Part shown: piece by piece, positions 34,097 to 64,000 of the stretch | Position numbering within the stretch: position 1 is the first letter of the stretch | Layout: each line of letters begins with the position of its first letter | Assembly (NCBI RefSeq): GCF_026210795.1 | Contig: NC_089434.1 | Location: 1,488,001-1,552,000 of the forward strand | Direction of reading: 5' to 3' | DNA length: 64,000 bases | From: Rhizophagus irregularis | Taxonomy: Eukaryota | Translations under genes and position numbers: made by a program | The notes under the pieces: model-generated | Told to the model about the DNA's origin: nothing | What the model saw: only the letters and a program-made list of their open reading frames with translations | Databases searched by the model: none

Positions 34097-34429
34097 ATCT
34101 ATCTACTCATGATTTATAATAATTATGCCATAAAATTCATAAAATTTATTTTATATCCGTAAAATTAAAATTTCCATCAAATTATTTAATTTTTTTTTGT
34201 AGTTATTGTCGAAACAAATAAAAAGGTTACTATAAATTTTTTTTCTGATAATTTATATATTTAATAATTTGAATAAATTTATTATACAATTATTTAAATT
34301 ACAAACTAAGAAAATTGTAAAAAATTTTACTACTCTAGTCTTAATGTTTAAATAATTCAAAATAAACATAAATAATAAAAGATAGAAATTTAAAAATATA
34401 AAAAAATTGTTAATTTATCAAAAGATAAT

Positions 34430-36721
34430 TTAAAATCCATCTAAGGAATAAATAAATAACAGATAATAGTAACAGGTTAGTAAATAAAATAAATAAAATA
34501 TCGTAAAAATATAAGAATAATAAAGTAATTAAGAACTTACCATCAGGAATTTCAAATTCATCTTGTTCATTTGAATGAAGATTTGGATTATTATGTATAT
34601 CATCATCATCATCTATAAATAAATAAATAAATATAATATAATGTAATTAAAGTTAGCTATTATTATGTAAGATTTTGCTTACCATCAATATTAATATTTT
34701 GCTTTTTTGTTTGTTTTTGAGTTATTTCTTTTTCATCATCTAAATTTTTTAAATAAATGACGTGTTTAATAAATGAAATTAGTAATTTACTTACTATTTG
34801 AATTTATTTGCAACTTTTTAAATACTTTAGATAATCTTTTACTGCTACCTAAATTAGGATTTTGATTTAATATTAAATTCAAATTCAATTATTTCTAACA
34901 TATAATTCAAATAAATATTACCTTTAAAAATATTAATTATTTTCGATGATTTGCTACTATTCTGTTTATTTGACCCGTTAAAATCATTAACTGAAAACAA
35001 ATATTAATTTATAAACATTGTTATGAAAAAAATTCAACAATATAGCGTTAAATACTTACTATCATCAGGAATGTTAAAATCATATGATTTACTATGAAAT
35101 TCTATTATAAAAAATAAACTATTTTAATATTAAATTGTTGATAATTAAAAAATAGCAAAAAATTATTAATACCTTCTTGTTCTTCTATTATAATTAATTT
35201 TAATTAAGAAATAATAATGTTAATTTATTTTAAAATAAACAAAAAAGATTAATAAAATATTATACACTTATACCTTCTGTTGCATTTCTTGGTTCAGGTA
35301 GATTTTCAAAGTTGTGAATTTTACTTGTAAATAATCTGCTACTCGTATAATTTCCTTTTACTTTATTCATTTCTAAATTATCTATTTTTGATTGGAAAAA
35401 TTCATCTGACATATTTTGACAATCTATATTAAATCTTTGCATTTTTTTCTCAAATGTATAAATATCAGGCCTTTTTAATGGATCAGCATCCCAACATTGT
35501 ACCATTAAATTTTTATATTCTAATGGAGTTCCTGACACAATTTTTGGCCTTATACCATTAATAATGTTCATTGCAAGATCATAATCATGTTCATAATTTA
35601 TAAATGGTGGTTGTCCAGATGAAATTTCCCACATAAGTATTGCAATACTATAAATATCAGATGCAAAAGTACATTCCCTTCCAACAATAACTTCGGGTGC
35701 TATATAAGGAAGATTTCCATATATACTTGTTGATGATTTATTAGCAGGTCCACAAAATCCTAGATCACTAATGTCCCAAGCATCATTTAATTGTGAATAT
35801 AATATGTTTCCAGAATGCAAATCTCTATGAATTGCATTTTCACTATGAATATGATAAAGTGCAAGAATTATTTCATCAGCAATCCTAATTCTATCTTTCC
35901 ATGTAAGTTGATTATGATTTTGCTGTAAATATTTTCTTAAATCTATATCCCTTTTCGCTATTACAAGCATATAATTTCCATTTGATATATCTTGTGTCAA
36001 TCCATAACATCGAACAATTTCTGCCCATTTATTACTTATGGTTAAATGTGATTTAGCCTAAATGACATGTTATTTGTTATTATAAAAACTCCAAATTTTA
36101 TAAATAAATTTCAAATAAAATTATACAAACCTCTTCAAACCAACTTTGATTTACACTCTCAACATTTTCTAACCTTTTAAGTATTACTTCAAATGTTCCA
36201 GCTCTTTTTAATTGTTTTTTTTCAGAATCCCATTCATCATAACGTCCATTAATCCAGTCTGCTGTATAAATTTCAGAAAATCCACCTTTTGTTAAATATT
36301 TAATATTTATTAAATTGCTGTAAGGAATCCATTCAACTACCATATTTGGCATAAGTGTTTCCATTTGACATTTCTGTATTAATTTATCAATATTATCATT
36401 TCCGGATGTCCAATTTGAAAAATTTTCTATTAAATAATTTCGAACACATTTTTCACAATATAATGTAGCTAAACATTCTTGATTACAATTTTCACAATTT
36501 CTTTTTGTACCATCATTATGCATAATTTTATTTCGATCATAACTTTTAGTTAATAATCTTATTGCGTAAGTTTTTTCATTTTTTGTAAGACTTTTATCAG
36601 CAAGAACTGTTTGTTTTTGAAATTCAAATTGTTTGTGTATATCATTGTAAATATTAGTATCTAATAATGAAAGCGTCCTGTTATTTGCTGCATAAATTAA
36701 TTCATATCGAAGAGTGGACAT
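34430..36721 (-). CDS. TKL-like protein kinase, copy 2
   Basis: Intact kinase motifs (HRDLHSGN, DLG, APE); two large exons plus 3' micro-exons ending DGF*. Confidence 0.9.
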
Positions 36722-37008
36722 AATGTAATTAATAAATTAAAAGGAAAGAAAGAATTGTGTTTCAAGTTCGTTACTCCGAGATAAATTAGTAAATGCAAAT
36801 TGTTGATCAAAACTTGTACCACTCTTGTACCACCATGTGAATTTAAATTCTGTGATCAGTATTCGACGCTCAAATAAAATAAGTACGGTATTTTACAATT
36901 AATAGAAAACATAATCTGTGTGACAAACTTTATTTCTATACTTAATAAATAAATAATTTATTATTTGGTTCAAATTGATTAATATATTCTATTTAAATAA
37001 ACAACATA

Positions 37009-37430: not shown

Positions 37431-38406
37431 ATATTAAAACTCATTAAAAAATCGTACATAAAAAACAAATACTTGTAGTATCTTTTCTAAGAGAGTTAAA
37501 ATTAGGTTATAGTATTGCTTCTTGTTTATTTATTAAAAAAATAAACCATTTTGCTCCAAATAAACAATAAAAAAAAATATTTCATGCTTTTTTTTCTATT
37601 TGATTAAGAATAATTTTTTTTTTGTTTATGATTATATTGTTAAATATTTTTAAAATATATTGATTAAGTTTAAAGTTTCCAAATCTTTTTTTTTAAAAAA
37701 GAAATTATACTGTAAATTACTTATTGCGTTGTAATTTTTTTAAAACTCTGTATCATACAGGTATTTTTAACTTTTTTCTCACAAACTGCGACTCTAAGAA
37801 TTTAAGCTTTTAAAAAATAAAAAGCATTTTTAAATATAATTTTTTAAATGTTATTATATAAAGTAAATTATACTACGAAAGATGAATTAAATTAAGAACC
37901 AAGAATCTTGATATATTGTGTTTATTACGTGTATGTATGAAATCTTTTTGACGACGATATACAGTGCGCGCAATACAAAAGCGTTTGTTTGTCTTTGCTG
38001 TGCGTCTCAATCGTCTCATGTATAAATTACTGTAGCGATACAAAGTACAAAATCCTGATTGCTCAGAGAGTCGCCAGACCGGAGTAGGTTCTTAATCGAA
38101 TCAATCAAACTTCGATCATAAAATATTGGCCTCGATTAAAATCGAACTAGGTTTTGATCGATCACATTGATTGATCATGGAAATGTGATGAAAATTGAAA
38201 AAAAATCGATTGATCAACCAAGGTTTTTGGACCTGCAATTTCTCGAGGGTAATTTTTAGAATCAATTAAATACCATACGCTAGAGATCTTTTAATAGTTT
38301 AAGTAAAAAAAAAAAAATATTGACACATAAAAATTCATTCAGCTGAATATTTTTTGCACTTACTGATTTTGTTGTAGATTTTATTCCGGATTACCATTTT
38401 ATATAG

Positions 38407-38551
38407 TTATTGGGTAAGAAGTATTCAATATGAAGATTTATGACCGTCGATGTTAAATGATTGGCCGTTATTGTGCCACGTAGTGGCACAATGGCCAATC
38501 ATATAATGTTGATGGTCAAAATGGTAATATTGAATACTTCTTACCTAATAA
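38407..38551. repeat. 145-bp imperfect inverted repeat (hairpin), loop GTA
   Basis: TTATTGGGTAAGAAGTATTCAATAT..TGACCGTCGATGTTA.ATGATTGGCC..ATTGTGCCAC-GTA-GTGGCACAAT-GGCCAATCAT.TAATGTTGATGGTCA..ATATTGAATACTTCTTACCTAATAA. Confidence 0.95.
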
Positions 38552-38810
38552 TGATTTTATTGTGGCAGACCACCAAGATCATGTTTTAAAAGTTTATTTA
38601 AACTTTCTTTTAAATTTCAATTTTTACGCGTCTTTTTCTTTACGCGTTTAAAAGTTTATTTAAACTTTCTTTTAAATCCACTCATTTGTACACATTTTTT
38701 CTTTACGCGTTTTTTCTTTTACACATTCTTTTTTATATACACTTTTTAAATACCCTACTTTTTCTTTACACATTTTTTTCTTTCAACCTATTCTATTATT
38801 TATTTTAATA

Positions 38811-40438
38811 ATGAAGGAAAAAACTAACAAAAATAAAATAAATAATGATAAAGTATGTTGTTATTATTACCAAAATATTGTTATATTAATTTGCTAATAC
38901 AATATTTTCTATTCAAGTTTTATTTACCTACAGAAGACGAAATAAATTTTTTCAAAAAGAAGTCAAGAGTAGTAAATACAGATAAATCCACAGCAAATTG
39001 GGTTCACCAATTTGAAAACTTTCGTGAAAAAGCTGGATTTACTGGTAAAAGCATAGATATTACTGATAGAAAGGAATTAGAAAGTCAAATCTGTAGTTTC
39101 GTAACAGTTATGAAGACTAATTCTGGTGAAGAATACAAGGCTAGATCTATCCTCAGTGCTATACATGCATTAAACCGACATTTAAATGATTTATCATCAC
39201 TATCTCCAATGGATTTTACTTCAAGAAAACAATTTCCAATATTATATGATGTATTAGATGGCAAAATGAAACATGTAGCAGAACAAGGAAAGGCCAATGT
39301 TCAAGGAGCTGATGGTCTTTCTGTTGAAGAATGTAAAAAAATACTGTATTCACCAGTATTAAACATTGACACACCCACTGGATTGTTAAAAAAAGTCTTT
39401 TTTTTAAATGCATTATTCTTAGCTCTTAGAGGTGGTGAGCACTATTCATTACAATATTCTCATTTTAAGTTTAGAGCTGATGGTCAGGGTTTTGATGTAA
39501 ATATTCCTCGAAGTAAAACAAATCAAAGGGGTATTAATGGCTCATTAAATGATGAAAAATTAAGAATTCCATATCATCCAATGATAATGGAAACTTATAA
39601 CAAATATTTTTCTAAAAGACCAGGTAATGCCGATAAAGAATTCTATTTAAGAGAATATGTGTCTGAAGATGGTGAGTTCAATGTACTTTATCATTTTATG
39701 CTATTTTTTTCAGTAATATGACATTTATTAGTTAACTTATTTATTTATTTATAGATTATATTATTTATAATCGTTGGTTTCAAAAGTTTCATGTTGGTGA
39801 AAAGCGATTAAAAAATTTTTTACATGAAATTGTAATAGAATGTGGTATTGATATTGGCAATCGAAAGATCAGCAACCATAGCGCCCGAAAAAGTTTAGTA
39901 GGAATATTGAAAGAACTTGGTACTAGTGACAATGAAGTTATGGCAATTACCCGGCATAAATCAAATTCAGGATTTACTAGCTATGAAAGAACTAAAGAAA
40001 AAATGCAGAATGTTAGTTTAAACAACTTAATGAACGTTCTTATAGATAATGATCAAATGGAAGGCTCGGGTGAGTTTTAATTTTAATTTTTAAATTGATT
40101 TTCAATATACTAATTATACAATATGGAATTTTAGATGTTTTAGAACCTTTGCCACATTTTTCAATGCCAGATAAGCAAGCATTAACACCAATTGAACTTA
40201 AATCAACTTTTACTAGTGCACGCGAAATTTTTAAAGGTAATTTATTAATAGTTTGTTTTATTTTATTTTATTTTATTGATTTCTATTAATAAAATTAGCT
40301 GAAATCAATCAAGAAAGCCGAATTCCATTTTCTAACAAATCCAACAAATTGACAATAAATGAAACTGAAACTTTACAGGATATTTTTAAAGGAAACGGAT
40401 CAATTTTCAATAATTGTACATTTGTATTCAATAGATAA
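38811..40438 (+). CDS. Tyrosine recombinase, Crypton/DUF3504-type, apparently intact, 5 exons
   Basis: Exons 38811-38852, 38918-39671, 39755-40069, 40135-40236 and 40299-40438 splice in frame. Catalytic R (LALRGGEH), K (SKTNQ), HxxR (NHSARK), H (RHKS) and Y (FTSYER); C-terminal FNNCTF motif. Confidence 0.88.
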
Positions 40439-43400
40439 TACTAATATAGTTTAAGTAACAGTTTTTCAAATTGCTGTACAGTATTAAGCTAAACTAATGT
40501 AAATGATATTTGGTAAATGACGTAATGCGTTAGCAATATTGAGCGGAAATTAAATAACATGATCCTATAGGGATGCCCAATAAAAATTATTATGCGTCTC
40601 GAATTTCGTTTTTTTTTTTGGAAAGATTCGCTTTATAATTTCAGCAATTTATTGTCAGCAGTTCATTGAATTTAGTTCCTTTGACTAATATTAAATTTAC
40701 ATATGCAACTTATTTTTTTATTACTAATCAAATATAATAAAATTTTATACTTTAACTCTGAGTCAAATTTCGTTTTGTTGAGTTACAATTTCTTTCTTTG
40801 TAATTTACGTTCTTAAATTTTGATTTCGTAAATAATTATAATATTACCTTCTACTTTTATCTCAATGATGAATAGGTATTATAATAATAAAAAATTTTAA
40901 TTTTCAGTTTTAACTAAAACAAAAAAATTCACTTAAGTCACACCAAAAAAAAATCACGATTTATTACAATTTATTACATAATTTTATATAATTAGGAATT
41001 TTTTTATCCCTTCCGTTTGCAAATAAAACCGATCTTTAATATTTATTGCTTTCTTCTCATTCCCTTATCTACAAATTAGCATCAAAATATTTGTTTTTAA
41101 AATTTAAATATTAATGTTAAAAAGCAGCAATTCTACTCAAGTAATAAGAGTATTTATGTAGAAACTCAAATGAAATAAAATAAAATATTTATCAACAACG
41201 TAATTTTAAATGAGAAATATAAACTTATCAAAGTTTCAAATATTATGTTTATGAACAAAAAAATTAACTCCAAAAATCATACAAGTTAATTATTGGTATT
41301 CAAATTCTTACATTGGTTTATTATGATCGAAATTTATTTTATTAAGGATAGATTAAATCACTTTAATTAGTCAAATTGATTTTAAAAAGACAAAGAACGA
41401 GACCAAGAACTAGAAAATGCTGAATTAACTACGGTTTGGTCGGATTTTACTGACCACCGATATTTCTATATATTGAAATCAGTATTAATAGCATTAATTC
41501 CTATTGGACACCGTAGTATTCTTAATTGTCAGTTATTGTATAGAGATATCGATATCTCTATTCCTCCGTCCAATCATTTGAAAACATCATATCACAGAAA
41601 ACTGTTTTTCAGTAAATATTTTAATATTTTTCTACCATTAATTTACCTATAATGGTTAATTTCAGTTACAGTATATAGTATAATATTGAATTTTTTTTTA
41701 ACAGATATTTTACAAATAATTAACTCTCAATTGTAATTTAGCATAGATAAAAAAATTTTTTAAGTATCTTACCAAGAATAAATATAGATTGAATGATTAA
41801 CTGAGCTTCATAATGACGTATAAAATGAATTTTTATTATTCCTGACCAGATACCGTTTCTTTAAAGGAAAACTCGTTAATATATTAAATATTTAAATATC
41901 TTGTCAATGAAAGAATTATCAATACGCCACAGCTTATCATGACCTATTATAAAAACAATTATCTAAACGGATAAATGTCAACAGAAATATTTTACATTAT
42001 AGTTTGATTTTTTATTTTTATCAATGAATGGATTATAATTTAACTTTTTACATTTAAGTGTTTGACGAAATAAGCTTATTGAATGAAAATCGTAAATCTA
42101 GTTACCACCTGTCAATTCTCAGTTTGATAAATTCTTTCATGTGAGGATTTGCTTTTTGACAAAAATAGGGAATTATGATATTTATAAAATGGTAAAACAT
42201 TTAACCTGGTTCTAGTCGATAGATCAAATGAAACACAACATTGTCTTAACGTACACTTTAATCTTAACTTTGGGTTTCATTGTATTCCTGATAAACTATT
42301 TCAATATAAACCACAAGCTTTATCTATATATTATAATTTTATTATGACATAAAAAGTATATTAATACAGTAATAGTTAAATAAAATCATCCATAGAAAAA
42401 TTTAATTTGTACGTAAGCATAATTATCTTCAGTTGGGAGAATCTCATGATTGCCAATAGCTTTTGGTACTTTATCACGAAAATTTTATTACGTGTATTTT
42501 ATTGGACCGATATAGTATTTTAAGTTTATATCGTATTACTTAGTTATTTAAAAAGGTTTTAAATTCATTTCAAAAAACTCTATTTAGGTTTTTAATAATT
42601 GTATGGGATACTTAATTAAGCTATAATATAGCTTGCGTTAATATAATTAAAAATATCTAAAATAGATAAATAAATTATAATGTGAGAAAATATATCATAT
42701 AAATTTATTAAAAAATATTATTATATAGTGTTTACAATTTTAATCATAATATATTCATTTAAAATTACTTTTTTATTTCACAAATCACATTAAATTAATA
42801 TGAACTTTGAAATTATAAATATAAGAAATATAAGAATGTAACAAAACATAATAATTTTATATCATATGAAAATATAAGTATTTAGATTATAATTAAAGAA
42901 TTTCAAGATACATAATACCTTGCAATTCAAATTTTTTTTAAAATATTAATATTATTTTAATTATTCAAAATCCATCTTAAAATTCATTATTATTAGATAA
43001 AAACAATAACATTTATTAACTAAAGAATCAACAATTTATTAATATATTTTCATTATCATAAGTCTTTCGCTCGTATCACGCACATGCAAAATTTACTTTA
43101 CTATAAATAATAACAGCAAAAATATATATATATTTTTTTCAAAAAAAAAATTGTCTTTAACAAATGTTATCCAAATAAACTAAGTTATAAATATGATAAT
43201 GGAAAATTAATGATGCAGTAACTTTTAACTTTATTAAGTTTATTTAAAATCAAAAAATCAAACTCGAAAATTAATTCCTAATATTCAGCAAAACCAAATA
43301 TTTAATGAAATACGCTTTTTATAGTATTACCGTTACGTAATATTTTAATTTCGTAGAACCATACACTGTAACTAGTAGCGATATACAAAATTTATAGAGA

Positions 43401-45162
43401 TTCATAAAATTTTTATGATTTGATTGATAAATTTACAACTTAAAATATTTGAATTGTTATTACTAAAAAATTTACATATACAACAAGAATGTCTTCATTT
43501 ACAATTCTATACCAAATTAAATCTAATGATTAGATGGTTTATCAATGGTTTAGTATATTATATGTTTGAAACCTGGAAATTTAAGATTTTTTCAATTGTA
43601 GAGTATTAATGCTATTTTTATTATTTATTATTATTGAATATAGATACTCATCAAAAAATGCAATCCAAAACATTAAATATTTTCATAATTTCTGGCTATA
43701 ATAAAATTTTACCTATAAATAAAAAAATATATATTCTTCAAATTCAGAAAGATTTCTTGTTAAGTCATTATTGCCTAAGGTAATCTATAAAATAAAAAAT
43801 ATGATAAAAATATATTAGAAGACTCGAGTACTCTAAGTAAGCTTTGTAGAAAAGACAGATTCAAGCCCCCATGCCTACTATCAACTGACATTAACGATAT
43901 ATTGTGAGTGATCAAACTCGTGCAGAGGTACTGTCACATTGATAATAAGACATGAGACCCACCACACCAAAGGGAAGGGCCCCACATACAGAAGTCTGCG
44001 ACATAGCTTGAGATATTATTATTTTCTCATTTAAGGTAACCAAACTTCTAGAAGAGGAGGATAACCAAAGCACTCTAGGTGCACAAATCCCTTATACATC
44101 CCAGCTTAGTCATTTCCACTTACCAAAATAATAAAAACCCCAAGATATTTATCATGTTTAAATAGAAATCTTCTAAAGTCTTTTACAATAACAAAAGTCT
44201 TATATGTATTTAATAAATAAAAATATAAGTTTGAGAAGTTATACTATAATAGATATTATATTAAAGAAATATAGCAAATATTGTATTAAAAGAAGACAAA
44301 AGTAAATTAAAAGGGAAAAAATTTTGAAAGTTAAAAAGTCTAATGAGAAAAAAAGTGACTTTATAAATAATTTTTCATGGGAAAATCATTAAAATCAGTC
44401 AAATCAGTCATTGTGATTAGTATGATGTAAGATTGTTTACGCGTTATACTGTGCACTAGGGAATTACGCGTATTGATCACGTTGGTTAATATTAATTAAG
44501 TACTTACTCTCACTCTTAAAGTTGAACTTAATCATAAAAATGAAAATTAAAGGTAATAGATGAACTCAACTTCAAAATAGAGTAAATATACATTTGTAAC
44601 TTTTTTTTTTCAATAACACATAATAAATTTCTTTATCAAGCATTTTTTGTTAACGGGTTGTCATAATTCTAATAATAACGAAAAATATTTTCACTTAATA
44701 TATTAATTGAATGAAAAACTTACCTTTTTTGTAATCTCTCGAGTTGTCAAAATTTCTTATGTGCGATTAGCTTTATATATAATGCTGGTTTTATTATTAG
44801 AATACAGTTAGTAACTTTGTCCAAAAAAATCTTATATCTAAGAGTTAGAGTATCAATTCTTTAATGTTATGAGATATAATTTACATTATTTTGGTAACGT
44901 AATTCCTCAATCCACAGATACCCAATAAATATATTATCCACTAAAATGAAAAAAATTCAAATATCAATAAACGAGAATCAAGAATTTATCAACACTTTGC
45001 AAAATGAGACGATGTTGTATACATTAATCTCGTAATTTTTCGCACGTGGTTATCTATCAATTTTATTAATCACGGTCGGTCTCTTATTAATAACTGGAAA
45101 ACCAATTCAATAATCATTTTTTAAAATTTTATACTTAAGATGTTTAAAAGTTTTTTTATTAT

Positions 45163-45312
45163 ATATTATTGTATAGGGGAGGAGCAATATCACTTATTTT
45201 AGTATAGGTCAATGTATGATTGGTTTTAATTTTGCCACGTCAGTGGCAAAATTAGTAACCAATCATACATTGACCTATAAAATAAGTGATTTTGCCCCCT
45301 GTACAATAATAT
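45163..45312. repeat. 150-bp imperfect inverted repeat (hairpin), loop GTCA
   Basis: ATATTATTGTATAGGGG..ATCACTTATTT..TATAGGTCAATGTATGATTGGTT.TAATTTTGCCAC-GTCA-GTGGCAAAATTA..AACCAATCATACATTGACCTATA-AAATAAGTGAT..CCCCTGTACAATAATAT. Confidence 0.95.
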
Positions 45313-47201
45313 TATTATCGTTTGGAACTGACCATAACATTTAAAAGCTTAAAAAAGTTTATTTAAAAGTTTAATTTTTTACTGTTTATATTGAAAAAAT
45401 GATTTACAAATTATGCTTTTTTCTCTTGCTGACTCTTTAGTATTTTTATAATAATGCCACCACAAAAATCTCAAAAGTAATATTTATTTGTATTCATTCA
45501 GTTAATATTTTATTTTATTTTTTTTTTGCATTTTATTAAAGATTTTTTTTTAGAATAAAAAAACTTTCACATATATGGCCCCTACTGAAGAAAAAATAAA
45601 AAGTATGCAAACAGCAGCTCGTGGCAAAGCTACACATAATTCTACAAGTACTTGGACTAATGCACTTGAAACTTTTCGTAAGTATATTGGATTACCTGGA
45701 AAAATAGATGATGTGAATTCTAAAGAAGAGTTAGAGCGTCAACTTGTTTTATTTTTTGTTTCATGTAAGCAGCAAAATGGAGCTGAATATTCAGTACAAT
45801 CAATAAAATCAGCAAGATTTGCTATTGCACGACATATCAACACATATTCTAAAATTCGTCCACAAGAAATTACAAATAAAAATATATATTCTGAATTATA
45901 TAACGCAATTACTGGCAAGATCAAACTTTTAACTGATTAGGGATTAGGTGAAATACATGGTGCAGATGCTTTTACTCAAGATGAGATTAGGAAAATTATT
46001 AATCATCCCACAATGCAACCAGATTTACCAAAAGGACTTATACGACACATATTTTGGCATAATACTTTTGAATTAGCTCTTCGAGGTGGAGAGCATTATA
46101 ATCTAAAGATACAACAATTTAAAAAAAGAAAGGATGGTGGTATTGACGTTACATTTTATAGATCTAAGTGTAATTAGAGATCTTTAAGTGAATCTAATTC
46201 TAAAGCTGAAGTAATTTCAATACCTGCTGATAATGCTGTTATTCAAGATTATGAGCTTTATTTTAGTAAAAGACCACCAATTTGTGAAGATGCATTTTAC
46301 TTGCAACCTTGCAACAATAATGAAGGTAATTATTTATTATGTAGTAAATTATTATTTTTTTTACCTTTCTTTTAATTTCAAATAGTTGAGTTTACAGGTT
46401 ATTGGTTCAAATCTGCTCAAATGAGAGGAAAATCGGTAAAAGGACTTATGAAAGAAATTGCAACATTAACTGAAATCGATTGTGATAAAAGAAAGTTCAC
46501 AAATCATAGTGGACAAAAAACCTTAATTCAAATTTCAAAAAGTGAAGGAATTAGTGATAATGATGTGATGTCTGTGTCACGGCATAAAAATCCTCACTCT
46601 TTGGCTTATTATGAACGTCCCAAGTCTATATTGCAGCAAAATACATTATCGCAAATTAATTCTTTAATTTATAATGGTAAGAAAAGAATTGCACCTGTGG
46701 TTTTAATGTAAAAGTAATATACAATATATTTATTATTTTTCTTTTCATTAGATACATTATTGTCAAATGACAAAAACTGCAAATTCTTTTTCTTCAGCCT
46801 TAGAAATTTTCAATGGTAAGATTTAAATTATGAACTAATAATTCTTATGGTATAAAAAATTTTATTTTTTTTTAGAATCACGGTCACCACTTCAGCAGCT
46901 CAACTCAAATGATTTAAACGAATTAAATGATGATCAACAAAATCAAGAAATTAACGGAAATGATGAGACCATTAAAAAAATTCTCCATGGGAATGTTTTT
47001 CAGAATTGTAATATTACATTTAATGTGAATAAATGATTTTTATACGAATTTTATTATATGTACACTTATAAATAGCTTATTTTAATAATATAAAGTATAA
47101 ATAGTTTATATAAAGTATAAATGGTTTATTATGATATTATAAAGTATAAATAAAATATCTAAAAATATAGTATGTTATGATCATATGTACCTGAACGATA
47201 A
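45166..47201 (+). mobile_element. Crypton-like tyrosine-recombinase element 2 (hairpin module plus TIR-bounded YR module)
   Basis: Hairpin 45163-45312; TIR-L 45314-45340; YR pseudogene; TIR-R 47172-47202. Confidence 0.8.
45454..47036 (+). pseudogene. Crypton/DUF3504-type tyrosine recombinase pseudogene
   Basis: LALRGGEHY, RSKCN*R, NHSGQK, RHKN, AYYER and FQNCNI motifs; in-frame TAG at 45938 and 46175; intron layout equivalent to element 1. Confidence 0.85.
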
Positions 47202-49096
47202 TTGCTTTTATTGCAACTTTTATCTTAAAAGCACTAATTACAAATATAATGATTATTATATAATAAAGTAATTCATTAAGGAAAATAAGAACAGAGTTTC
47301 CAATAGCATATCTAACATTATGAAAATTTAATATGTATTATAAATTTTATAACCAAAAGGATAACATTACTAGCCCTATTCCGCACGTTATCTAACTGTT
47401 TCCTTTATAGCTAAGTTTATCATTTTGTAGCAAAATCGCATAAATTTTTACCAAATATTCTTTAAGATTAAATCTTTTTTATTCAAGTATTTATAATATC
47501 ACTTGAAATTTTTTCCCATAAGACTATAAGGTTAGATTTTATTGTAACAAGTATTAGACGTATTAGACATCAATATTGTACAAATCTAGAAATGTTGAGC
47601 GAAATACTTAAACATCGTCAATTAGCTAAATTTTGGCAGTATTTCTTCATAAATTAGTTTGCGTCCCTTTTTTTTGTCTTATAAATAAAAATATCTCAGA
47701 AGCCTTAAATTATATATGTATATATATATATATACAGTACTTATATCTGCTACTATATTCTTTAAAAAAAATTAAGTAAAAAAGCTTTTATTTATGTTTT
47801 AATGGCGTTAAAACAGCAAAAATTAGTACCGCAAATTTTCCATTTTTTCCATTTTTTTATTTGGAATTTTCCAACTTTTTGATTTTTCAAGCTAAATAAC
47901 TTCGCAAAAATCAAATTTGAAGCTTTAAAATATACTGCATCGCCCTAAATTACATATTCTGAATATAATACAAAGTGTTTATTTTTAGATTATTAAGTTT
48001 AAAATGGGGTTTCAATTAGCGTATTAGCAATTAAATAATAAAACAAATGATGATTGGCAAATTAGTAATCTATAATTAAGATATCCTACCAGATATTACT
48101 GTATCACCCATAAAATGAATTAATTAGTTTTAGTCTAATATAAATTATATAGTTAAATAGGTCAGTTTCGGATTGTAGATCTGACGACATTATATCTGGT
48201 AAAGTTTGATCTTCCCGCCCTTTTTTCTTTTCTTTTTTTGTTCAAGCTATGCTTTATTGTATATTATATTAAACCATCATGAAATGATCGATTTGGAAGA
48301 ATTATAAAAAAAAAGAAATAGTATTGTTTTAAAAAACATACTAATTTGATACTATATATGATAGTAGCAAGATACAGTATAATCAGATTACAAAATATCA
48401 AGGTTCATCAAATATAAGGCATGATTTGAAATACAAATCTTAAGATATCATAAATATAAGATAACTCTTAATTTGTTGTCTAATTAAAAATTTTTTCTAA
48501 TCATACATAATTAAAGTTTTGTCTTAACGAATAATATAATTACAATAATATTTTGTAACCGATAAATTTTCATCTTCATAAATAGTCAATAGATATAAAA
48601 TCTGTAATATTAAATATTATTATTCAAAAATTTTTGTAATTAAATAAATTTAGAGTCAAAATCTCAAAAATTGATATATGGTTTTGGATACAACATATAA
48701 TTCTTTTAAACTTCAGTTAAGTTTCGCAAATAATTAAAAGATTTATGATATCTGCTGAACATGTCAATAGCTAGAAAATCAGTTTCAGCAAATGTGTTCG
48801 GTTACAATGGTATGAGATGAAATAGACAAATGATTCGAATGATCAATTCTCAAGTACCAAATGTGATATTAATTATGGCTTTTTTATTTAAAATCATATG
48901 GTAAGTTATCAACCAATCAAAATGAAATGATTATGAAATTAAGCAAATCCTTTAAATGGTTAAATGACTAAACACTGTAGAAAATAACTAGAAATATCAG
49001 AATAATCATAGATAAAATCAGTATTGTATTGTATAATTGTCTCAAGAATGGGTTTTTTTTTAATATTATACCCGTCATGTGAATCACTAAAAATTT

Positions 49097-51920: not shown

Positions 51921-52557
51921 CCTACATTCTTTCATCGGTTATCGTTTGTATTCTAATTATTTCTTTAGGTCTTTATAACTTGTTTCTTGTTTCTACTTTG
52001 TTTACAAGTCAAATTATATGTTGTGATTGTTAACCTTCTATACCTGTTTGGCTTATATTGAGGGTGTAGACCTCCCGACCTCCCGTGCCTGCTTGGTTGC
52101 CTTTCAAAGTACCAAGATGGTGTAAAAAAAAGGTGTCAGGTGGCACAGTAAATTTGTGCTGGCACTATGCTATAATTCTAGCCAATCTTTTGGGCACATA
52201 ATTGCGCCCATTCATTTGTTAAAACAATCTTTTGAAATAAAGATCAACTATAAAATATCAATCACCTGATTGATAGCTATAAAAATTTCTTTTATTTTAT
52301 ATTCGGAAAATTAAAATTTCCATCAAATTATTTAATAATATTTCTTGTAGTTTTACTAAAAAATTTGTTTTTACTGATAATTGTATATTTAATAATTCAA
52401 ATAAATTTATTATACAATTATTTAAATTACAAACTAAGAAAATTGTAAAAAATTTTACTGCTCTAGTCTTAGTGTTTAAATAATTTAAAATAAATCATAA
52501 ATAATAAATGATAGAAATTTAAAATATAAAAAAATTGTTAATTTATAAAAAGATAAA

Positions 52558-54868
52558 TTAAAATCCATCTAAGGAATAAATAAATAACAGATAATAGTAA
52601 CAGGTTAGTAAATAAAATAAATAAAATAGTAAAAATAAAGAATAATAAATTAATTAAGAACTTACCATCAGGAATTTCAAATTCATCTTGTTCATTTGAA
52701 TGAAGATTTGGATTATTATGTATATCATCATCATCTATAAAAAAATAAATAAATAGAATTAAAAATGGTATTAATGTTAACTATTATTATGTAAGATTTC
52801 GCTTACCATCAATATTAATATTTTGCTTTTTTGTTTGTTGTTGTTGAGTTATTTCTTTTTCATCATCTATATTTTTAAATAAATGGCGTGTTTTAATAAA
52901 TGAAATTAATATAATAGCGACTTAATTTGTTTGTAATTCACTTACTATTTGAATTCATTTGCAACTTTTTAAATACTTTAGATAATCTTTTACTGCTACC
53001 TAAATTTGATATTAAATTCAATTTCAATTTATTATTTCTAACATATAATTCAAATAAATATTACCTTTAAAAATATCAATTATTTTCGATGATTTGCCAC
53101 TATTCTGCTTATTTGACCCGTTAAAATCATTAACTGAAAACAAATATTAATTTATAAACATTGTTATGAAAAAAATTCAATAATGTAGTGTTAAATACTT
53201 ACTATCATCAGGAATGTTAAAATCATATGATTTACTATGAAATGCTATTATAAAAATAAATTATTTCAATATTAAATTGTTGATAATTAAAAAAATAACA
53301 AGAAATTATTAATACCTTCTTGTTCTTCTATTATAATTAATTTTAATTAAGAAATAATAATGTTAATTTAATTTAAAATAAACAAAAAAGATTAATAAAA
53401 TATTATACACTTATACCTTCTGTTGCATTTTTTGGTTCGGGTAGATTTTCAGCAAATTGATGAATTTTACTTGTAAATAATCTGCTACTCGCATAATTTC
53501 CTTTTACTTTATTCATTTCTAAATTATCTATTTCTGGTTGAAATGATTTATCTGACATATTTTGATAATCTAAAATAAGTCTTTTCATTTTGGTCGCAAG
53601 TGCGTCAGCATCAAGTCTCTTTAATGGATCAGCATCCCAACATTGTATCATTAAATTTTTATATTCTAATGGAGTTCCTGTCACAATTTTTGGCCTTATA
53701 CCATTAATAATGTTCATTGCAAGGTCATAATCATGTTCATAATTTATGAATGGTGGTTGTCCAGATGAGATTTCCCACATAAGCATTGCAATACTATAAA
53801 TATCAGATGCAAAAGTACATTCTCTTCCAACAATAATTTCAGGTGCTATGTAAGGAAGATTCCCATATATACTTTTTGATGATTTATCTGCAGGTCCACA
53901 AAATCCAAGATCACTAATATGCCAAGAATCATTAAATTGTGAATATAATATATTTCCAGAATGCAAATCTCTATGAATTGCATTTTCACAATAAATATAA
54001 TAAAGTGAAAGAATTATCTCATAAGCAATCCCAATTCTTTCTTTCCATGTGAGTTGATTATGATTTTGTTGTAAATATTTTCTTAAATCTATATCCATTT
54101 TCATCATTACAAGCATATAATTTCCATTTGATATATCTTGTGTCAATCCATAACATTGAACAATATCTGGCCATTTATTACTTATGGTTAAATGTGATTT
54201 AGCCTAAATGAAAACATGCTATTGTTAATAGAAGAAATATAAATTTTTAAATAAATTTCAAATAAAATTATACAAACCTCTTCAAACCAACCTTGATTTG
54301 CACTTTTAACATTTTCTAACCTTTTAAGTATTACATTTTCATCTCCAAATCTTATTAATTGTTGTCTCTTAGAATCCCATTCATCATAACTTCCATTAAT
54401 CCAGTCTGCTGTATAGATTTCAGATAATCCACCTTTTGTTAAATATTTAATATTTTTTAAATTACTATATGGGATCCATTCAACTATCACATTTGGTCTA
54501 ATTGTTTCCAATTGACAATTCTGTATTAAATCATCAATACCATCATTTCCAGACGTCCAATTTGAGAAATTTTCTTTTAAATAATTTCGAACACAATATT
54601 CACAATATAATGTAGCTAAACATTCTTGGTTACAATTTTCACAAATTCTTCTTGTACCATCATTAAGCATAACTTTATCTCGATCATAATTTTTAGTTAA
54701 TGACCTTATTGCAAAAGTTTTTTCTTCACTTGTAAGAATTTTATCAGCAAGAAGTATTTGTTGTTGGAACACAAATCGCATATGTATATCATTATGAATA
54801 TTAGTATCTGTTAACATTACTATTCTATTCTTTGTTGCATAAATTAAATCATATCGAAGAGTGGACAT
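52558..54868 (-). CDS. TKL-like protein kinase, copy 3
   Basis: Same exon structure and kinase motifs as copy 2. Confidence 0.9.
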
Positions 54869-55024
54869 AATGTAATTAATAAATTAAAAGGAAAGAAAGA
54901 ATTGTGTTTCAAGTTTGTTACTCCGAGATAAATTAGTAAATGCAAGTTGTTGATCAAACTTGTACCACTCTTGTACCACCATGTGAATTTAAATTCTGAG
55001 ATCTTAAGGCGCGGCAGTACCGAC

Positions 55025-55618
55025 TGTTACGCAGTAAAATGTTGCGCAGCAATCATGTGATATAACTGGACCCGTGATGCCGATCAATGTAGCAAATGTC
55101 GAATATGTTTGACATGTTCGATATGTCGCATATGTCCGATATGTAGAATATATAGAATATATGGAACATGTAGCATATATGAGATATATAGAACATGTAG
55201 CATATATGGGATATATAGAACATGTAGTATATATGGAATATATAGAACATATAGCATATATAGGATATATAGCATATGTAGCATATGTTAAACATTTTTA
55301 GTTTGGAAATTTATGTATATATAGACCTATAATTAGACCTAAATTCAATATAGAACGTGTGTGAAGAATTTAATTAATAAAATGTTTACCCTTTAATATA
55401 CACCTTAATTTTAAGTTTGGTTTTATATGGTTAATCTGCCTTCCCTTATTTGTGTCTGATTGTATGCGCCAGTGTGAAGCGATACTCTATTCACATCTGA
55501 TTGGATTGATTTTAACATATACTGACGTTGATCCTTAAAATTACCTTCTGCTTTATTAAATATAAACATTTTTTAATGTATAGCTTATTTTTAAGCTTAT
55601 AAGAACTGACCTCTAACA
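55025..55618. mobile_element. Solo LTR (or Ginger-type element), 594 bp
   Basis: TGTTA..TAACA ends; 4-bp TSD CGAC (55021-55024 and 55619-55622); empty site CAGTACCGACGCTC at ~59033; internal 27-bp repeats at ~55140-55290. Confidence 0.85.
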
Positions 55619-56542
55619 CGACGCTCAAATAAAAAATGAGTACGAAATTAATACTTGTGTGACAAAATCTTTCTCAATAATTAATACTAGTATTTATTAT
55701 TTTATTTCATATTGATTAATATTTTATTTTGACGAAACAAAAAAATCTAAACTTTCGAAGTGATTGTGTCTTTAATAGATTAAATTAATTAATTGTATTA
55801 TTTAAAATTAACAACATATCGAGTAACGGATATTAGAAATTATAAGAAGCCATATTCAAGTTAGAAAGGAACTTTAGTAGAACCATCATTTCTTTTTTTG
55901 TAATTATGGATTACGATTAAATTAAATATATAACTTGATATAAGCAAATTAAATAATAAATGAAAGAAATCATTACGTTGAGATTTAAGAATTTAGTATG
56001 TAGTAACTTCACAATAATAACATTTCTGTTCAATCTAAAATTGCAATTAATTTTTTTAAAAATGTTAGTGACTTAATGTAGTGATATATATTCAGAAATT
56101 TTTATACGCGCAAAATGTAAATTAGCCTTGAAAAATTTTATGCAATCATATGTGAGAGTAAATAATTATAGCGGCAATTAATCATTGGGCTAAAACAAAA
56201 TCTTTTGAAATAAAGATTATCACCTGGTTGTTAGCTATAAAATTCCTTTCATATTCGGAAAATTAATATTTTCATCAAATTATTTAATAATTTTTCTTGC
56301 AGTTTAATACTGGATAGAACAAATAAAAATCGTTACTATAGAATTATTTTTTACTGATAATTTATATAGTATTTAATAATTTGAATGAATTTATTATACA
56401 ATTATTTAAATTACAAACTAAGAAAATTGTAAAAAATTTTACTACTCTAGTCTTAGTGTTTAAATAATTCAAAATAAATTATAAATAATAAATGATAGAA
56501 ATTTAAAAATATAAAAAAATTGTTAATTTATAAAAAGATAAT

Positions 56543-58893
56543 TTAAAATCCATCTAAATAACAGATATCATAATAGTAACAGGTTAGTAAATAAAATAAA
56601 TAAAATATAGTAGTAAAAATAAAGAATAATAAAGTAATTAAGAACTTACCATCAGGAATTTCAAATTCATCTTGTTCATTTGAATGAAGATTTGGATTAT
56701 TATGTATATCATCATCATCATCTATAAAAAATAAATAAATAAATAGAATTAAAAATAGTATAAAGTTAACTATTATTATGTAAGACTTCGCTTACCATCA
56801 ATATTAATATTTTGCTTTTTTGTTTGTTGTTGAGTTATTTCTTTTTCATCATCTAAATTTTTAAATAAATGATGTGTTCAATAAATGAAATTAATATAAT
56901 AGCGACTTTATTTGTTTGTAATTTACTTACTATTTGAATTTATTTGCAACTTTTTAAATACTTTAGATAATCTTTTACTGCTACCTAAATTAGGATTAAT
57001 ATTAAATTCAGTTTCAATTTATTATTTCTAATAATATATATATATATTATAATTCAAATAAATATTACCTTTAAAACTATTAATTACTTTTGATGATTTG
57101 CTACTATTTTGCTTATTTGACCCGTTAAAATCATTAACTGAAAACAAATATTAATTTATAAACATTGTTGTGAAAAAAAATTCAACAACTGAATGTAGTG
57201 TTAAATACTTACTATCATCAGGAATGTTAAAATCATATGATTTACTATGAAATGCTATTATAAAAAATAAACTATTTCAATATTAAATTGTTGATAATTA
57301 AAAAATAACAAAAAATTATTAATACCTTCTTGTTCTTCTATTATAATTAATTTTAATTAAGAAATAATAGTAATGTTAATTTATTTTAAATAAACTAAAA
57401 ATAAATAAGCTAAAAAGATTAATAAAATATTATACACTTATACCTTCTGTTGCATTTCTTGGTTCAAATAGATTTTCAAAATTGTGAATTTTACTTGTAA
57501 ATAATCTGCTACTTGTACAATTTCCTCTTACTTTATTCATTTCTAAATTATCTATTTCTGATTGAAATGATTTATCTGACATATTTTGATAATCTAAAGT
57601 AATTCTTTCCATTTTGTCCTCAAGTGCATAAACATCAAGTCTTTTTAATGGATCAGCATCCCAACATTGTATCATTAAATTTTTATATTCTAATGGAGTT
57701 CCTGGCACAATTTTTGGCCTTATACCATTAATAATGTTCATTGCAAGATCATAATCATGTTCATAATTTATAAATGGTGGTTGTCCAGATGAGATTTCCC
57801 ACATAAGCATTGCAATACTATAAATATCAGATGCAAAAGTACATTCCCTTCCAGCAATAACTTCCGGTGCTATATAAGGAAGATTTCCATATATACTTTT
57901 TGATGATTTATCAGCAGGTCCACAAAATCCAAGATCACTAATAAACCAACGATCATTAAACTGTGAATATAATATATTTCCAGAATGCAAATCTCTATGG
58001 TTTGCATTTTCACCATGAATACGATAAAGTGCAAGAATTATTTCATAAGCAATCCCAATTCTTTCTTTCCATGTAAGTTGATTATGATTTTGTTGTAAAT
58101 ACTTTCTTAAATCTATATCCATTTCCATCATTACAAGCATATAATTTCCATTTGTTGGATTTTGTGTCAATCCATAACATTGAACAATTTCTGCCCGTTT
58201 ATTACTTATGGTTAAATGTGATTTAGCCTAAATGACAACATGTTATTGTTAATAGAAAAAACATTAAATTTTTAAATAAATTTAGAATAAAATTATACAA
58301 ACCTCTTCAAACCAACTTTGATTTGCACTCTCAACATTTTCTAATTTTTTAAGTATTACATTATTATTTTTCAATCTTATTAATTGTTTTTTTACAGAAT
58401 CCCATTCATCATATTCTCCATTAATCCAATCTGCTGTATAAATTTCAGAAAATCCACCTTTTGTTAAATATTTAATATTTTCTAAATTACTATATGGGAT
58501 CCATTCAACTACTTTACTTGGCATAAGTGTTGCCATTTGACATTTCTGTATTAAATTATCAATATCTTCATTACCAGATGTCCAATTTGAAAAATTTTCT
58601 TTTAAATAATTTCGAACACAATATTCACAATATAATGTAGCTAAACATTTTTGGTTACAATTTTCACAAATTCTTCTTGTACCATCATTATAAAAAATTT
58701 TATTTCGATCATAATTTTCAGTTAAATCTCTTATTGCTTCAGTTTTTTCTTCACTTGTAAGAATTTTATCAGCAAGAAGTGTTTGTTGTTGGAACTTAAA
58801 TCGTTTATGTATATCATTATGAATATTAGTATCTGTTAACATTATTATTCTATTCTTTGTTGCATAAATTAATTCATATCGAAGAGTGGACAT
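56543..58893 (-). CDS. TKL-like protein kinase, copy 4
   Basis: Same exon structure and kinase motifs; start MSTLRYE at 58893. Confidence 0.9.
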
Positions 58894-60006
58894 AATGTAA
58901 TATAAATTAAAAGGAAAGAAAGAATTGTGTTTCAAGTTCGTTACTCAGAGAAAATTAGTAAATGCAAATTGTTGATCAAAACTTGTACCACTCATGTACC
59001 ACCATGTGAATTTAAATTGAGATCTTAAGGCGCAGTACCGACGCTCAAATAAAAAATGAGTACGGTATTTTTTAAATTATTAAAAAACATTTGTGTGACA
59101 AAATCTTTCTCAATAAATTAATAGTATCTATTATTTGATTTCATATTGATTAATATTTTATTTTGACGAAACAAAAAAATCCAAGCTTTTAAAGTGATTG
59201 TGTCTTTAAACGATTAAATTAATTAGTTGTATTATTTAAAATTAACAACATATCGAGTGATGGATATTAGAAATTATAAGAAGCCATTCAATTTATTATT
59301 TTCTTTAAAGAAGCCATATTCAAGTTAGGAAGGAACTTTAGAAGAACCATCATTTCTTTTTTTGTAATTATGGATTACGAATAAATTAAATATATAATTT
59401 GATATAAGCAAATTAATAATAAATGAAAAAAATCATTACATTGAGATTTAAGAATTTAGTATGTAGTAACTTCACAATAATAGCATTGCCGTTTAGTAAT
59501 CTATAATTGTAATTAATTTTTTAAAAACTGTTAGTGACTTAATGTAGTGATATATATTCAAAAAATTTTATACGCGCAAAATGTAAAGCCTTGAAAAATT
59601 TTATGCGGTCATATGTGTGAGTAAATAATTATAACAGCATCCATTCATTGGGTTAAAACAAAATCTTTTGAAATAAAGATATACTTTAAAATATCAATCA
59701 CCTGGTTGATAGCTATAAAATTTTTTTTATATTCGGAAAATTAAAATTTTCATCAAATTATTTAATAATTTTCTTGACTGGGTAGAACAAATAAAAATCG
59801 TTACTATAGAATTTTTTTTACTGATTATTTTATATATTTAATAATTTGAATAAATTTATTATTCAATTATTTAAATTACAAACTAAGAAAATTGCAAAAT
59901 ATTTTACTACTCTAGTCTTAGTGTTTAAATAATTTAAAATAAATTATAAATAATAAATGATAGAAATTTAAAATATAAAAAAATTGTTAATTTATAAAAA
60001 GATAAT

Positions 60007-62319: not shown

Positions 62320-64000
62320 AATGTAATATAAATTAAAAGGAAAGAAAGAATTTCGGTGTTTCAAGTTCGTTACTCCGAGATAAATTAGTAAATGCAAATT
62401 GTTGATCAAAACTTGTACCACTCCTATACCACCATGTGAATTTAAATTCTGTGATCTCAAGGCGCAGTATCGACGCTCAAATAAAATGAGTACGGTATTT
62501 TTAAATTAATAGAAAACATAAATCTGTGTGACAAAAACTTTCTCAATAAATTAATAGTATTTATTATTTGATTTCATATTGATTAATATTTTATTTTGAC
62601 GAAACAAAAAAATCTAATCTTTCAAAGTGATAGTGTAAATTAGTAATTAATTGTATTATTTAAAATTCAATATAAATATGACTGGTAAATTAAGAAAAAA
62701 TTCATCTTTTTGGATATTTTCAATTGAATTTATTCAATAAACAACAACATATCGAGTAACGGATATTAAAAATTATAAGAAGCCATTCAATTTATTATTA
62801 AACCATATTTAAGTTAGAGAGGAACTGAACTTTTGTAGAACTATCATTTCTTTTTTTGTAGATATGGATTACGAAATAATGATTTGAATTAAAAATATAT
62901 AATTTGATAAAAGCACATTAAAAATTAAATGAATGAGAAAGAAACCATCACTTTGAAATAAATAAACGTAGTAAGCTTCAGTACGTATGGAATGTACTAG
63001 TTCCATTATAGTCGGTATTACTGTTTAATAATAATGTTGTTTCCCAATTAATAAATTTCAATTTAACGTTACGGAAAAATTAAAAATTATTCTTTCAGAA
63101 AAATAATCATAAGCTTCTAAAACTTATTTAAATGATTTGGTAAATACAAACGTCGAATGTAAGTCTAACCTAATTTAATTACATAAATTAGTCATTTAAG
63201 AATAAACAAAATCATTGTTTAAAAAAATATAGATTAAATAAGTGTTAAGCCTCAAAAGGGTGTAAATAATAATGAATCTTATTATTATACTTGGTCAGTT
63301 ACCATTTGATACTTTTGCTTCTTTAAAAGACAAAACCATCGACGTTTTTAATTTTTATATGTTTTATCGATAAAAAAAAAAGTTTAAAAAATACTTGCAA
63401 TGTTTATCAATCATAATAGGATAAGAATTTTGTTGTGCGCAAACGATAATTAATTGCTAGCTTAGCCTTTTTAATGATATAATAAATTGAAAAGCAAATG
63501 AGCGGTAGTCATTAATTTATAAATAAATAATCATCAGATTTTTTAAAAAAAATATTTTGTATTAAATTTTTTTTTGATAATGATATGGTTAAATATTTAT
63601 TGATGTTTCATAATAAATCTATATGTTTTTTATAATTAATTTTTCATCCAAACTTATAATAATAGCCATAGTAACTATCACATTAAAGTTTTTGAGTTTC
63701 TACATTTAATAATTTTTAAAAACGTGACCTTAAATTTTTAATCAACTCGTCAAGTCTCACAATGAGTAACCAGATTTTATCTAATGAGATCGATAAAACA
63801 AATGATTATGCCTATTACGAATCTATACCCACCAATGATAGGGTCGAGTTGATTTAAGTATTATTATTCATCAAGACATCAGGATATTTCACATATGCAT
63901 AATCTTCCATAAAAACAATAAACTGAATTTCAATCATATTTTCATTTTCTAAAATTAAACAAGATACAAGAGAAATTCATATTTATATTTATATTACCAT

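Follow-up and report, generated by a model that had tools for sequence, protein, structure and literature searches.

An imperfect hairpin at the left end of a CryptonA/Glomhopper transposon in Rhizophagus irregularis and its possible role as a folded single DNA strand

The window, i.e., the whole stretch of 64,000 nucleotides of Rhizophagus irregularis DNA that was analysed (contig NC_089434.1, positions 1,488,001 to 1,552,000), is AT-rich, with introns and five kinase repeats (Table 1). The latter are dispersed copies of a two-exon Ser/Thr/Tyr kinase gene, 88–97% alike and all on the minus strand. Smaller repeats are a MITE-like structure with 46-base inverted arms, a 67-base middle and no strand bias (22176–22334), a short, highly repeated element with a contig depth of 21,000 against about 240 in DNA run X13 (43808–44139), and two short tandem, partly self-complementary arrays in which the + strand folds better (55090–55260 and 29045–29210). 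The strongest hairpin in the window, hairpin 1, stands at the left end of element 1, and the second strongest, hairpin 2, precedes a broken recombinase gene of the same kind in element 2. Neither a third element copy nor a paralogue of either flank was found in the 64-kb window.

Table 1. Positions of the described features within the window.
Feature	Position	Strand	Description
Kinase gene copies	24900-27400, 34250-36740, 52380-54880, 56360-58940, 59830-62500	-	Repeats
Element 1	38401..40584	+	Young, intact-looking CryptonA/Glomhopper tyrosine-recombinase transposon, about 2.18 kb, about 10 near-identical copies
Left 6-base spacer	38401..38406	+	ATATAG; putatively owned by the element and crossover region
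Hairpin 1	38407..38551	+	73-nt 5' arm starting with terminal half-site TTATTG, loop GTA, 69-nt 3' arm
Sequence-conserved apex	38457..38502	+	ATGATTGG, 11 bases from ATTGG to CCACG, GCCAC-GTA-GTGGC, CCAATCAT; also in hairpin 2
Internal recombinase-type core site	38544..38563	+	At the hairpin base: CCTAATAA, 5-base spacer, TTATTGT
Left inner inverted repeat	38557..38582	+	Boxes TTATYGT and GATCAT, non-matching middle; scores highest as inverted match to the right end (44; controls 21-25)
Tyrosine recombinase gene	38811..40439	+	4 predicted exons (38811-38852, 38918-39671, 39755-40069, from 40135); putative start and end
Right inverted repeat	40559..40583	+	Ends in CCCAATAA; agrees with the end of the multi-copy contig
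Right 6-base spacer and host half-site	40584..40594	+	AAATTA, then host TTATG half-site; first base common to the left spacer
Element 2	45160..47202	+	Decayed copy of a second multi-copy subfamily; recombinase frame with a stop, one catalytic arginine missing in this copy
Hairpin 2	45166..45309	+	73-nt 5' arm, loop c-GTCA-g, 2 G.T, 0 A.C, 1 T.T
Right end of element 2	47177..47213	+	ATGATC...ACGATAA, spacer TTGCTT, host TTATTG

Read contigs were examined over positions 37500–47450 in two DNA runs, X13 and X4, the latter of which may be the source sample of the window. Contig depth over element 1 is 2485–2528 against 213–245 in the flanks in X13 and 63–69 against 6–7 in X4, and the number of copies given in Table 1 was estimated from these depths. 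Flank contigs break off at 38425/38426 on the left and start again at 40556/40558 on the right, the element 1 contig ends at 40584, and the element 1 contigs listed (38648–40584) have zero differences from the window. A roughly tenfold depth with sharp edges at the hairpin and at the right repeat thus identifies the hairpin as the left end of a CryptonA/Glomhopper transposon that was amplified recently, and we regard it as nearly certain that hairpin 1 is the terminal structure of a transposon. Element 2 has a depth of about 2400 against about 240, again about tenfold. Contigs joining 45148 to 47200 (X4 and X13) and 45129 to 47216 (X13) look like empty sites in related host repeats and leave the boundary of element 2 imprecise at the single-base level. 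Element 2 is itself nested in another dispersed repeat (44700–45160 and 47202–47450), of which uninserted related copies show as contig joints.

The DUF3504-type recombinase gene of element 1 follows hairpin 1 after a gap of 260 bases. Exon 2 matches DUF3504 with an E value of 2.5e-5 and 24.8 bits, under the cut-off of 29.7 bits, which the recombinase of the metagenome copy L117 exceeds (32.6 bits), and exon 3 matches Phage_integrase (E 0.0015). The closest named homologues come from R. irregularis and are annotated as DUF3504, the catalytic R, K, H-x-x-R, H and Y, read from translation and alignment, are all kept, and the last intron is spanned by an RNA contig. A modelled homologue (P0008, pLDDT 60) has the Cre fold with Cre as the nearest structure, an integron integrase appearing only at rank 39. 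Between the ends of element 1, open reading frames and a domain search gave recombinase frames alone, reverse transcriptase and a second mobility gene being absent. By its domain, catalytic residues, host and context the gene would be filed under CryptonA/Glomhopper, with which the element shares a single DUF3504-type gene, introns, intact catalytic residues, occurrence in Glomeromycota, neighbouring kinase repeats and, as in animal CryptonA, a length of about 2 kb.

As DNA the + strand of hairpin 1 folds at -48.8 kcal/mol (z -17.8; 0 of 200 shuffles as good) and the minus strand at -42.3 kcal/mol, and as RNA the values are -85.8 and -67.4, so that the folding of both strands called for in the preliminary description favours the + strand with either set of parameters. 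The limits of the hairpin coincide exactly with the terminal TTAT half-site of the element and its complement. A strand-neutral alignment of the arms gave 60 matches, five G.T pairs (38412/38546, 38446/38513, 38449/38510, 38451/38508 and 38452/38507), no A.C pair, four purine.purine mismatches and four bulged bases. The A.A pair (38456/38503), the GTT bulge, the internal loop of GAAG opposite GGTA and the loop c-GTA-g at 38480–38482 were likewise recovered, which confirms the inventory of mismatches first drawn up for this hairpin except that one single-T bulge had been missed. Among 40 of 330 rows of differences no fixed difference falls in hairpin 1, which suggests that it represents the family consensus. 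The apex of hairpin 2 is that of hairpin 1, i.e., ATGATTGG and CCAATCAT around GCCAC-GT(C)A-GTGGC, and where hairpin 2 has its T.T a contig of the family in run X4 has T.G. The loops of hairpins 1 and 2, GTA and GTCA, were found without use of a loop pattern and are both G...A loops closed by C-G. The likeness to the very stable DNA GNA mini-hairpin that had been proposed holds for c(GNA)g and fails for the full GCGNAGC (PMC13037366), since the next pair is A-T (AC-GTA-GT); of the mini-hairpin motif GCGNAGC/GCGNNAGC the C-G-closed G...A loop is thus present and the second closing pair, G-C, is not. Loops of the seven metagenome copies were dictated by the search pattern and are excluded as evidence on the loop.

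Further copies were obtained by scanning metagenome contigs on both strands with the apex pattern, allowing a spacing of 9–13 between ATTGG and CCACG. Of the 45 loci found, seven are long AT-rich hairpins, 16 belong to a single unrelated repeat family and 22 are unrelated hits. A recombinase lies downstream on the same strand in five of the seven AT-rich loci; the contig of L139 ends about 200 bases on, and L154 is a geneless copy of 387 bases. None of the 22 unrelated hits has an AT-rich long hairpin or a downstream recombinase. L117, L124 and L137 have differing flanks, and homology among them starts at the base of the hairpin. Four subfamilies are sampled in all and the sites counted are not fully independent; L138, which is truncated by the start of its contig, was excluded from the folding of eight copies, from the mismatch and bulge counts with one copy per subfamily and from the count of consensus pairs. 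Between subfamilies the sequence of the stem is free and the pairing is kept: 31 of 58 consensus pairs are changed on both sides across the eight copies (the alignment between subfamilies being uncertain), and in the clearest case, which does not depend on a deep alignment, four of the 146 hairpin positions distinguish L117 from L124 and form two compensatory couples (1e-4 by position alone), with 83% identity in the region downstream of the hairpin. Repair of one arm from the other could also give these compensatory changes, yet it needs the fold as well. Tandem G.A appositions can be read beside the CCAAT box in the L117 and L128 subfamilies, and there are none in hairpins 1 and 2.

Outside these copies, two pattern scans of viral contigs gave 111 and 13 matches, of which the best-folding 15 of the first and all 13 of the second are GC-rich with no such hairpin, and two protein scans of viral contigs gave no match. 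In prokaryote genomes there are five distant recombinase matches with 36–38% identity over about 55 residues; matches in actinobacterial genome bins (L170–L174) centre on SKTNQRG. Three further observations concern short motifs. ACGCGT, which we take to match the fungal MluI cell-cycle box, occurs three times before the gene of element 1 (38626–38710; seven times in the window) and five times between hairpin and start codon in L117, and is absent from element 2 and L128; if it is the MluI box it would link expression of the recombinase with S phase. AAGTTTATTT, presumably forkhead-like, follows the inner repeat in 6/6 copies checked, forward at window positions 38589, 38651 and 45354 and reversed in L117, L124, L137 and L128. 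In the single-copy flank before element 1, a cluster of short motifs rich in ATCGAT/GATC lies 200–300 bases upstream of the element (38090–38230). Immediately past the short copy L154 there is a possible neighbouring or nested Crypton remnant at 500–640 (match orientation) with the further inner-repeat-like motifs TTATCATGTGAC and TTATCGTT.

The copies have a common layout, namely a 6-base spacer, a TTATWG half-site, the hairpin, CWATAA, a 5-base spacer, TTATYGT with a second box, the gene, inverted boxes ending in ACGATAA, and a variable 6-base spacer. The left spacer is nearly constant within a subfamily (TATAAR in 3/3 copies of one, TATATA or ATATAT in 3/3 of another), and covariation links its last base to the base that opens the inner 5-base spacer (A-T, G.T and G-C in L117, L124 and L137); on both counts it behaves as part of the element, and its constancy could partly be a preference for TA-rich targets. 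The inner spacer is 5 bases long in all nine copies, and the core-site pattern occurs twice in the window, once in each element. The 3' base of the hairpin bears a second complete site, ATAA-N5-TTATCGT, the inner half of which is an inverted copy of the right end. Five copies have a right end (L128, L137, L138 and L139 are without one). Its inverted match lies above controls in elements 1, 2 and L154 and not in L117 and L124 (29–30 against 25–34), so that in the last two the right end rests on the break in homology. The multi-copy contig of element 1 and the homology between L117 and L124, which ends one base past ACGATAA, both stop after the first base of the right spacer. The two inverted repeats do not pair in their middles, where by eye the top-strand mismatches include A.C. 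A host TTAT lies six bases beyond the right end in three of the five right ends (p 6e-5 by the window's own frequency) and TTA in four; the left and right spacers differ in 5/5 copies and have the same first base in 4/5, both the host TTAT and the shared base being missing in L154. As the spacers differ in 5/5, direct repeats of 4–6 bases at both ends are absent. The ends of the element are thus resolved to within a base or two and the target rule is TTAT six bases on.

Other classes of structure were considered and rejected. A MITE with terminal inverted repeats does not apply as the hairpin is one end of a gene-bearing element, and a Helitron 3' hairpin is wrong in size and enzyme. A telomere-resolvase site at the apex does not agree with recombinase-type half-sites located at the base, nor an assembly artefact with nine loci of the same design and imperfect arms.

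Conservation of the apex differs from that of the stem. ATTGG and CCACG are 11 bases apart in all nine fungal copies, the seven AT-rich metagenome loci among them, and the mirror spacing varies; a spacing conserved on the 5' arm only fits binding of a protein to duplex DNA. It is therefore conceivable that recombination proceeds on two strands via a duplex circle and that the palindrome is a platform for host factors (two CCAAT boxes and an ACGT core) which drives the recombinase gene or bends the end, with template switching keeping the symmetry. CCAAT boxes pair with E-box/bZIP sites 10–12 bases away. The 5' arms, 73 bases in three subfamilies and 63–64 in the fourth (the 3' arms have 60–70), differ by one helical turn, and an RNA contig of the element 2 family extends to 45328, just past the hairpin, which agrees with such a platform even though contigs cannot show a start. 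An unrelated reverse-transcriptase element that has no long stem moreover bears ATTGG-N11-CCACG in its terminal repeat. The platform account, however, offers no reason for the exact coincidence of the stem end with the terminal half-site, for the presence of a second full site with its fixed 5-base spacer at the base of the stem, or for the constancy of the left spacers. About 45 base pairs of stem are kept though the sequences of the subfamilies are unrelated, and template switching itself requires the fold. We consider it quite unlikely as the explanation of the hairpin; a duplex platform for promoter activity or bending may be a second function of the apex.

The repeat family that bears this apex is represented by 16 loci with 19 matches (L114:2480-3186 in match orientation, L115, L126, L127, L129, L131, L133, L136, L140–L142, L145, L146, L151, L153 and L156), with a GC content of about 0.4 and no long stem. 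Its element, of Ngaro/DIRS type, has reverse transcriptase and tyrosine-recombinase-like frames and, at its end, a split direct repeat of 241 bases in which GATTGG-N-GGCCAC-GTGA-GTGGCC...CCAATC lies; the spacing from ATTGG to CCACG is 11 in 17/19 matches. An apex common to two classes of recombinase element may reflect a common host factor and counts as one event.

It had been proposed that the excess of G.T over A.C mismatches in hairpin 1 betrays selection on the folded + strand, and that a count across the family would tell. In hairpin 1 alone the ratio is 5:0 (one-sided p 0.031), this hairpin having been chosen for the trait. With one copy per subfamily G.T:A.C is 10:2 (p 0.019), falling to 5:2 (p 0.23) without hairpin 1, and over all nine copies it is 17:10 (13:8 with stricter scoring), so that the family count agrees with the proposal in the first form and weakens it in the other two. 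Purine.purine against pyrimidine.pyrimidine mismatches number 10:3 with one copy per subfamily, and G.T and purine.purine combined against A.C and pyrimidine.pyrimidine 20:5 (p 0.002), or 11:5 (p 0.11) without hairpin 1. Among the bulged bases purines outnumber pyrimidines 18:6 when each subfamily is represented by one copy, and 16:4 (p 0.006) without hairpin 1. Folded as DNA, the top strand is the more stable in 8/8 copies with a gap of 1.0–6.5 kcal/mol, and folded as RNA in 6/8. Two control inverted repeats in the window have G.T:A.C of 0:1 and 2:0, too few to use. The strand signal is real and modest, and G.T is not its strongest part: selection on the folded + strand is borne out mainly by the compensatory changes, the eight DNA folds and the purine bulges, the G.T bias being weak without hairpin 1.

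Deamination may account for part of this pattern. Four of the five G.T pairs of hairpin 1 carry their T in TpG, CG methylation of transposons in this fungus is reported to be high (PMC8647823), and CpG deamination probably made these four pairs. The origin foreseen in the preliminary description as a refutation of selection thus fits four of five pairs, and their placement on one strand is not explained by deamination itself. Decay of element 2 struck both strands (8 G>A and 5 C>T among the rows listed), as duplex deamination should, so that four deamination-type pairs all on the top strand (4:0, p 0.06) reflect either chance or selection. One could hold that the fold matters and that the G.T excess of hairpin 1 is an accident of CpG deamination in a founder, carrying no strand signal. 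The ratio of 5:2 without hairpin 1, 2:2 in the L117-type copies and 0:1 in L154 lean that way. On the other hand the A.C appositions of the L117-type copies lie within a 3x3 loop and that of L139/L154 beside bulges, whereas G.T pairs are mostly embedded in the stem (a sorting made post hoc), and the T.G of the X4 contig at the T.T of hairpin 2 also speaks against it. We judge such an accident somewhat unlikely, and it can be combined with the explanation that we prefer.

The preliminary description had left it open whether the folded strand acts as single-stranded DNA or as RNA, and the evidence favours DNA, with a role at the end of the transposon. An RNA function would place the hairpin at the 5' end of the element transcript, as a small-RNA precursor or in control of translation. 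Its length and bulges resemble those of a microRNA precursor, the G.U pairs are what give hairpin 1 its large strand gap as RNA, and passages of the literature report that the fungus makes transposon-derived small RNAs (PMC8647823) and has ten miRNA-like loci (PMC6399891). Against this, the RNA strand gap is 0 in L139 and +3.9 in L154, the stem is in register with the recombinase half-sites, and an Rfam search gave 0 matches. The GTA triloop and GTCA tetraloop fit the G...A loops of DNA and not the GNRA loops of RNA, and the RNA versions of the mini-hairpin are described as much less stable in the part of the source consulted (PMC13037366). Six short motifs of the two hairpins are absent from nine supplements of PMC6399891. 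A function as RNA is accordingly improbable in our view. The RNA contigs of X15 and X17 cover exons and two introns, and none of the pieces listed lies on a hairpin; as hairpins block reverse transcription, this carries no weight against a transcribed hairpin.

Judged from the sequence, the role of the hairpin would be that of folded DNA through which the top strand could rebuild the recognition site of the recombinase by itself, a single-strand mechanism to which we give a somewhat better than even chance. The recombinase would join the right end to the left spacer and so form a circle whose top strand reads ACGATAA-N6-TTATWG. This stretch of the junction would be complementary to the internal site on the same strand, and folding of the top strand, either as a free strand or by cruciform extrusion, would produce a duplex site whose centre is mismatched (6 against 5 bases) and which is flanked by the hairpin and, on the opposite side, by the two inverted repeats. 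One exchange of this strand with a target carrying TTAT at a distance of six bases, followed by replication, would yield an insertion like those observed, in which the left spacer comes from the element and the right one from the host, a single base is shared and the target is not duplicated. The strand used would be marked by the G.T pairs, the purine-rich bulges and the G...A loop. Computed circle junctions fold through the spacer into the inverted repeats in 5/5 copies; the top strand is favoured in four of them, and element 2 favours the bottom strand. For ordinary excision of both strands between the two ends of the element a hairpin is unnecessary.

After circularization the junction and internal sites would be inverted copies of each other, which could make the hairpin an invertible segment whose flipping aids amplification. 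The Flp sites of the yeast 2-micron circle bound such a segment. The orientation of the loop relative to the inner repeat is however identical in 9/9 copies from a scan that covered both strands, and we hold inversion to be extremely unlikely. Returning to the single-strand mechanism, it is tempting to speculate that CryptonA elements at large are DNA transposons of eukaryotes moving in the form of a single folded DNA strand, the terminal hairpin duplicating the site and the recombinase exchanging that strand only, with copying into targets of almost no homology; this wider proposal is tentative, with somewhat less than an even chance of being right.

The closest parallel is with integrons. 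The attC hairpin works as one folded strand with replicative resolution, according to the parts of two sources consulted (PMC5027507; PMC3458562), the first of which gives its recombined strand a skew to G.T and purines and which add the CTX phage and IS200/605 as further single-strand cases. Like attC, the present structure is an imperfect hairpin with kept structure and free sequence, and an unpaired central spacer between two binding sites; a skew of G.T and purines to one strand is indicated by ratios of 10:2 and 18:6, which become 5:2 and 16:4 without hairpin 1, and a single-strand exchange resolved by replication is predicted for it by analogy. It differs in being eukaryotic, with the recombinase encoded on the mobile unit itself and no cassette array, in having TTAT-type half-sites and a DUF3504 protein instead of the RYYYAAC/GTTRRRY core and the IntI integrase, and in that the site would be complete only after the ends join. 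The hairpin may thus work like attC; it is not an attC. In the covered part of the work on Tn916/Tn1549, a non-homologous crossover of 5–7 bases between AT-rich inverted arms, with one-base homology and a target motif six bases apart, may resemble what is found here, and a terminal hairpin or internal duplicate site is not described there (PMC5871717). The spacer pattern of this type with one-base homology fits 4/5 ends; the left spacer is here constant within a subfamily and there are no conjugation genes. DIRS/Ngaro elements, as treated in passages of PMC13465315, likewise have a tyrosine recombinase, a single-stranded DNA stage and internal complementarity to the ends, whereas the present elements have no reverse transcriptase and build the complementarity as one terminal hairpin.

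Within the Cryptons themselves the ends have been elusive. Repeats or boundaries are given as undetectable in the passages covered of the 2026 Glomhopper paper, the Starfish and minimap2 tables of which may bear on the ends (PMC13465315), and in the animal Crypton paper, in the part covered, terminal repeats are entered as 'n.d.' in all eight CryptonA entries (PMC3212892). A Crypton-A consensus has been curated for this fungus, its ends being undescribed in the passages covered (PMC8647823). The terms 'hairpin' and 'palindrom' occur 0 times in the main texts of PMC13465315 and PMC3212892, and a literature search, which did not reach Repbase Reports or most of the subscription journals, listed no work that deals with a terminal hairpin in Cryptons. 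Relative to Glomhopper/CryptonA as described, the ends are resolved here and consist of one terminal hairpin, an internal second site and two-box inverted repeats with no direct repeats; the general model of CryptonF/S has direct repeats of 4–6 bases, and the CryptonA entries list none either. According to the sections consulted of a 2026 review, the mechanism of Crypton transposition is not demonstrated experimentally and the model assumes a double-stranded circle (PMC13565253). The vertebrate relics Eulor5/Eulor6 are non-autonomous CryptonA-related repeats with conserved termini, and hairpins go unmentioned in the part of PMC5753468 that was covered. The end structure of element 1 is, in this light, undescribed before, and a young, intact copy is at hand together with a specific proposed mechanism that is open to oligonucleotide assays. 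Some Eulor families are reportedly called self-complementary in Repbase/Dfam notes, and if this is true the hairpin has already been seen in animals, without a mechanism.

If the single-strand mechanism is correct, a eukaryotic recombinase would read the structure of DNA as integron integrases do, as a counterpart of integron and CTX-phage chemistry. It would then bear on the reshuffling of genomes in mycorrhizal fungi, on the origin of the ZMYM/QRICH1 genes and on tools for integration with low homology.
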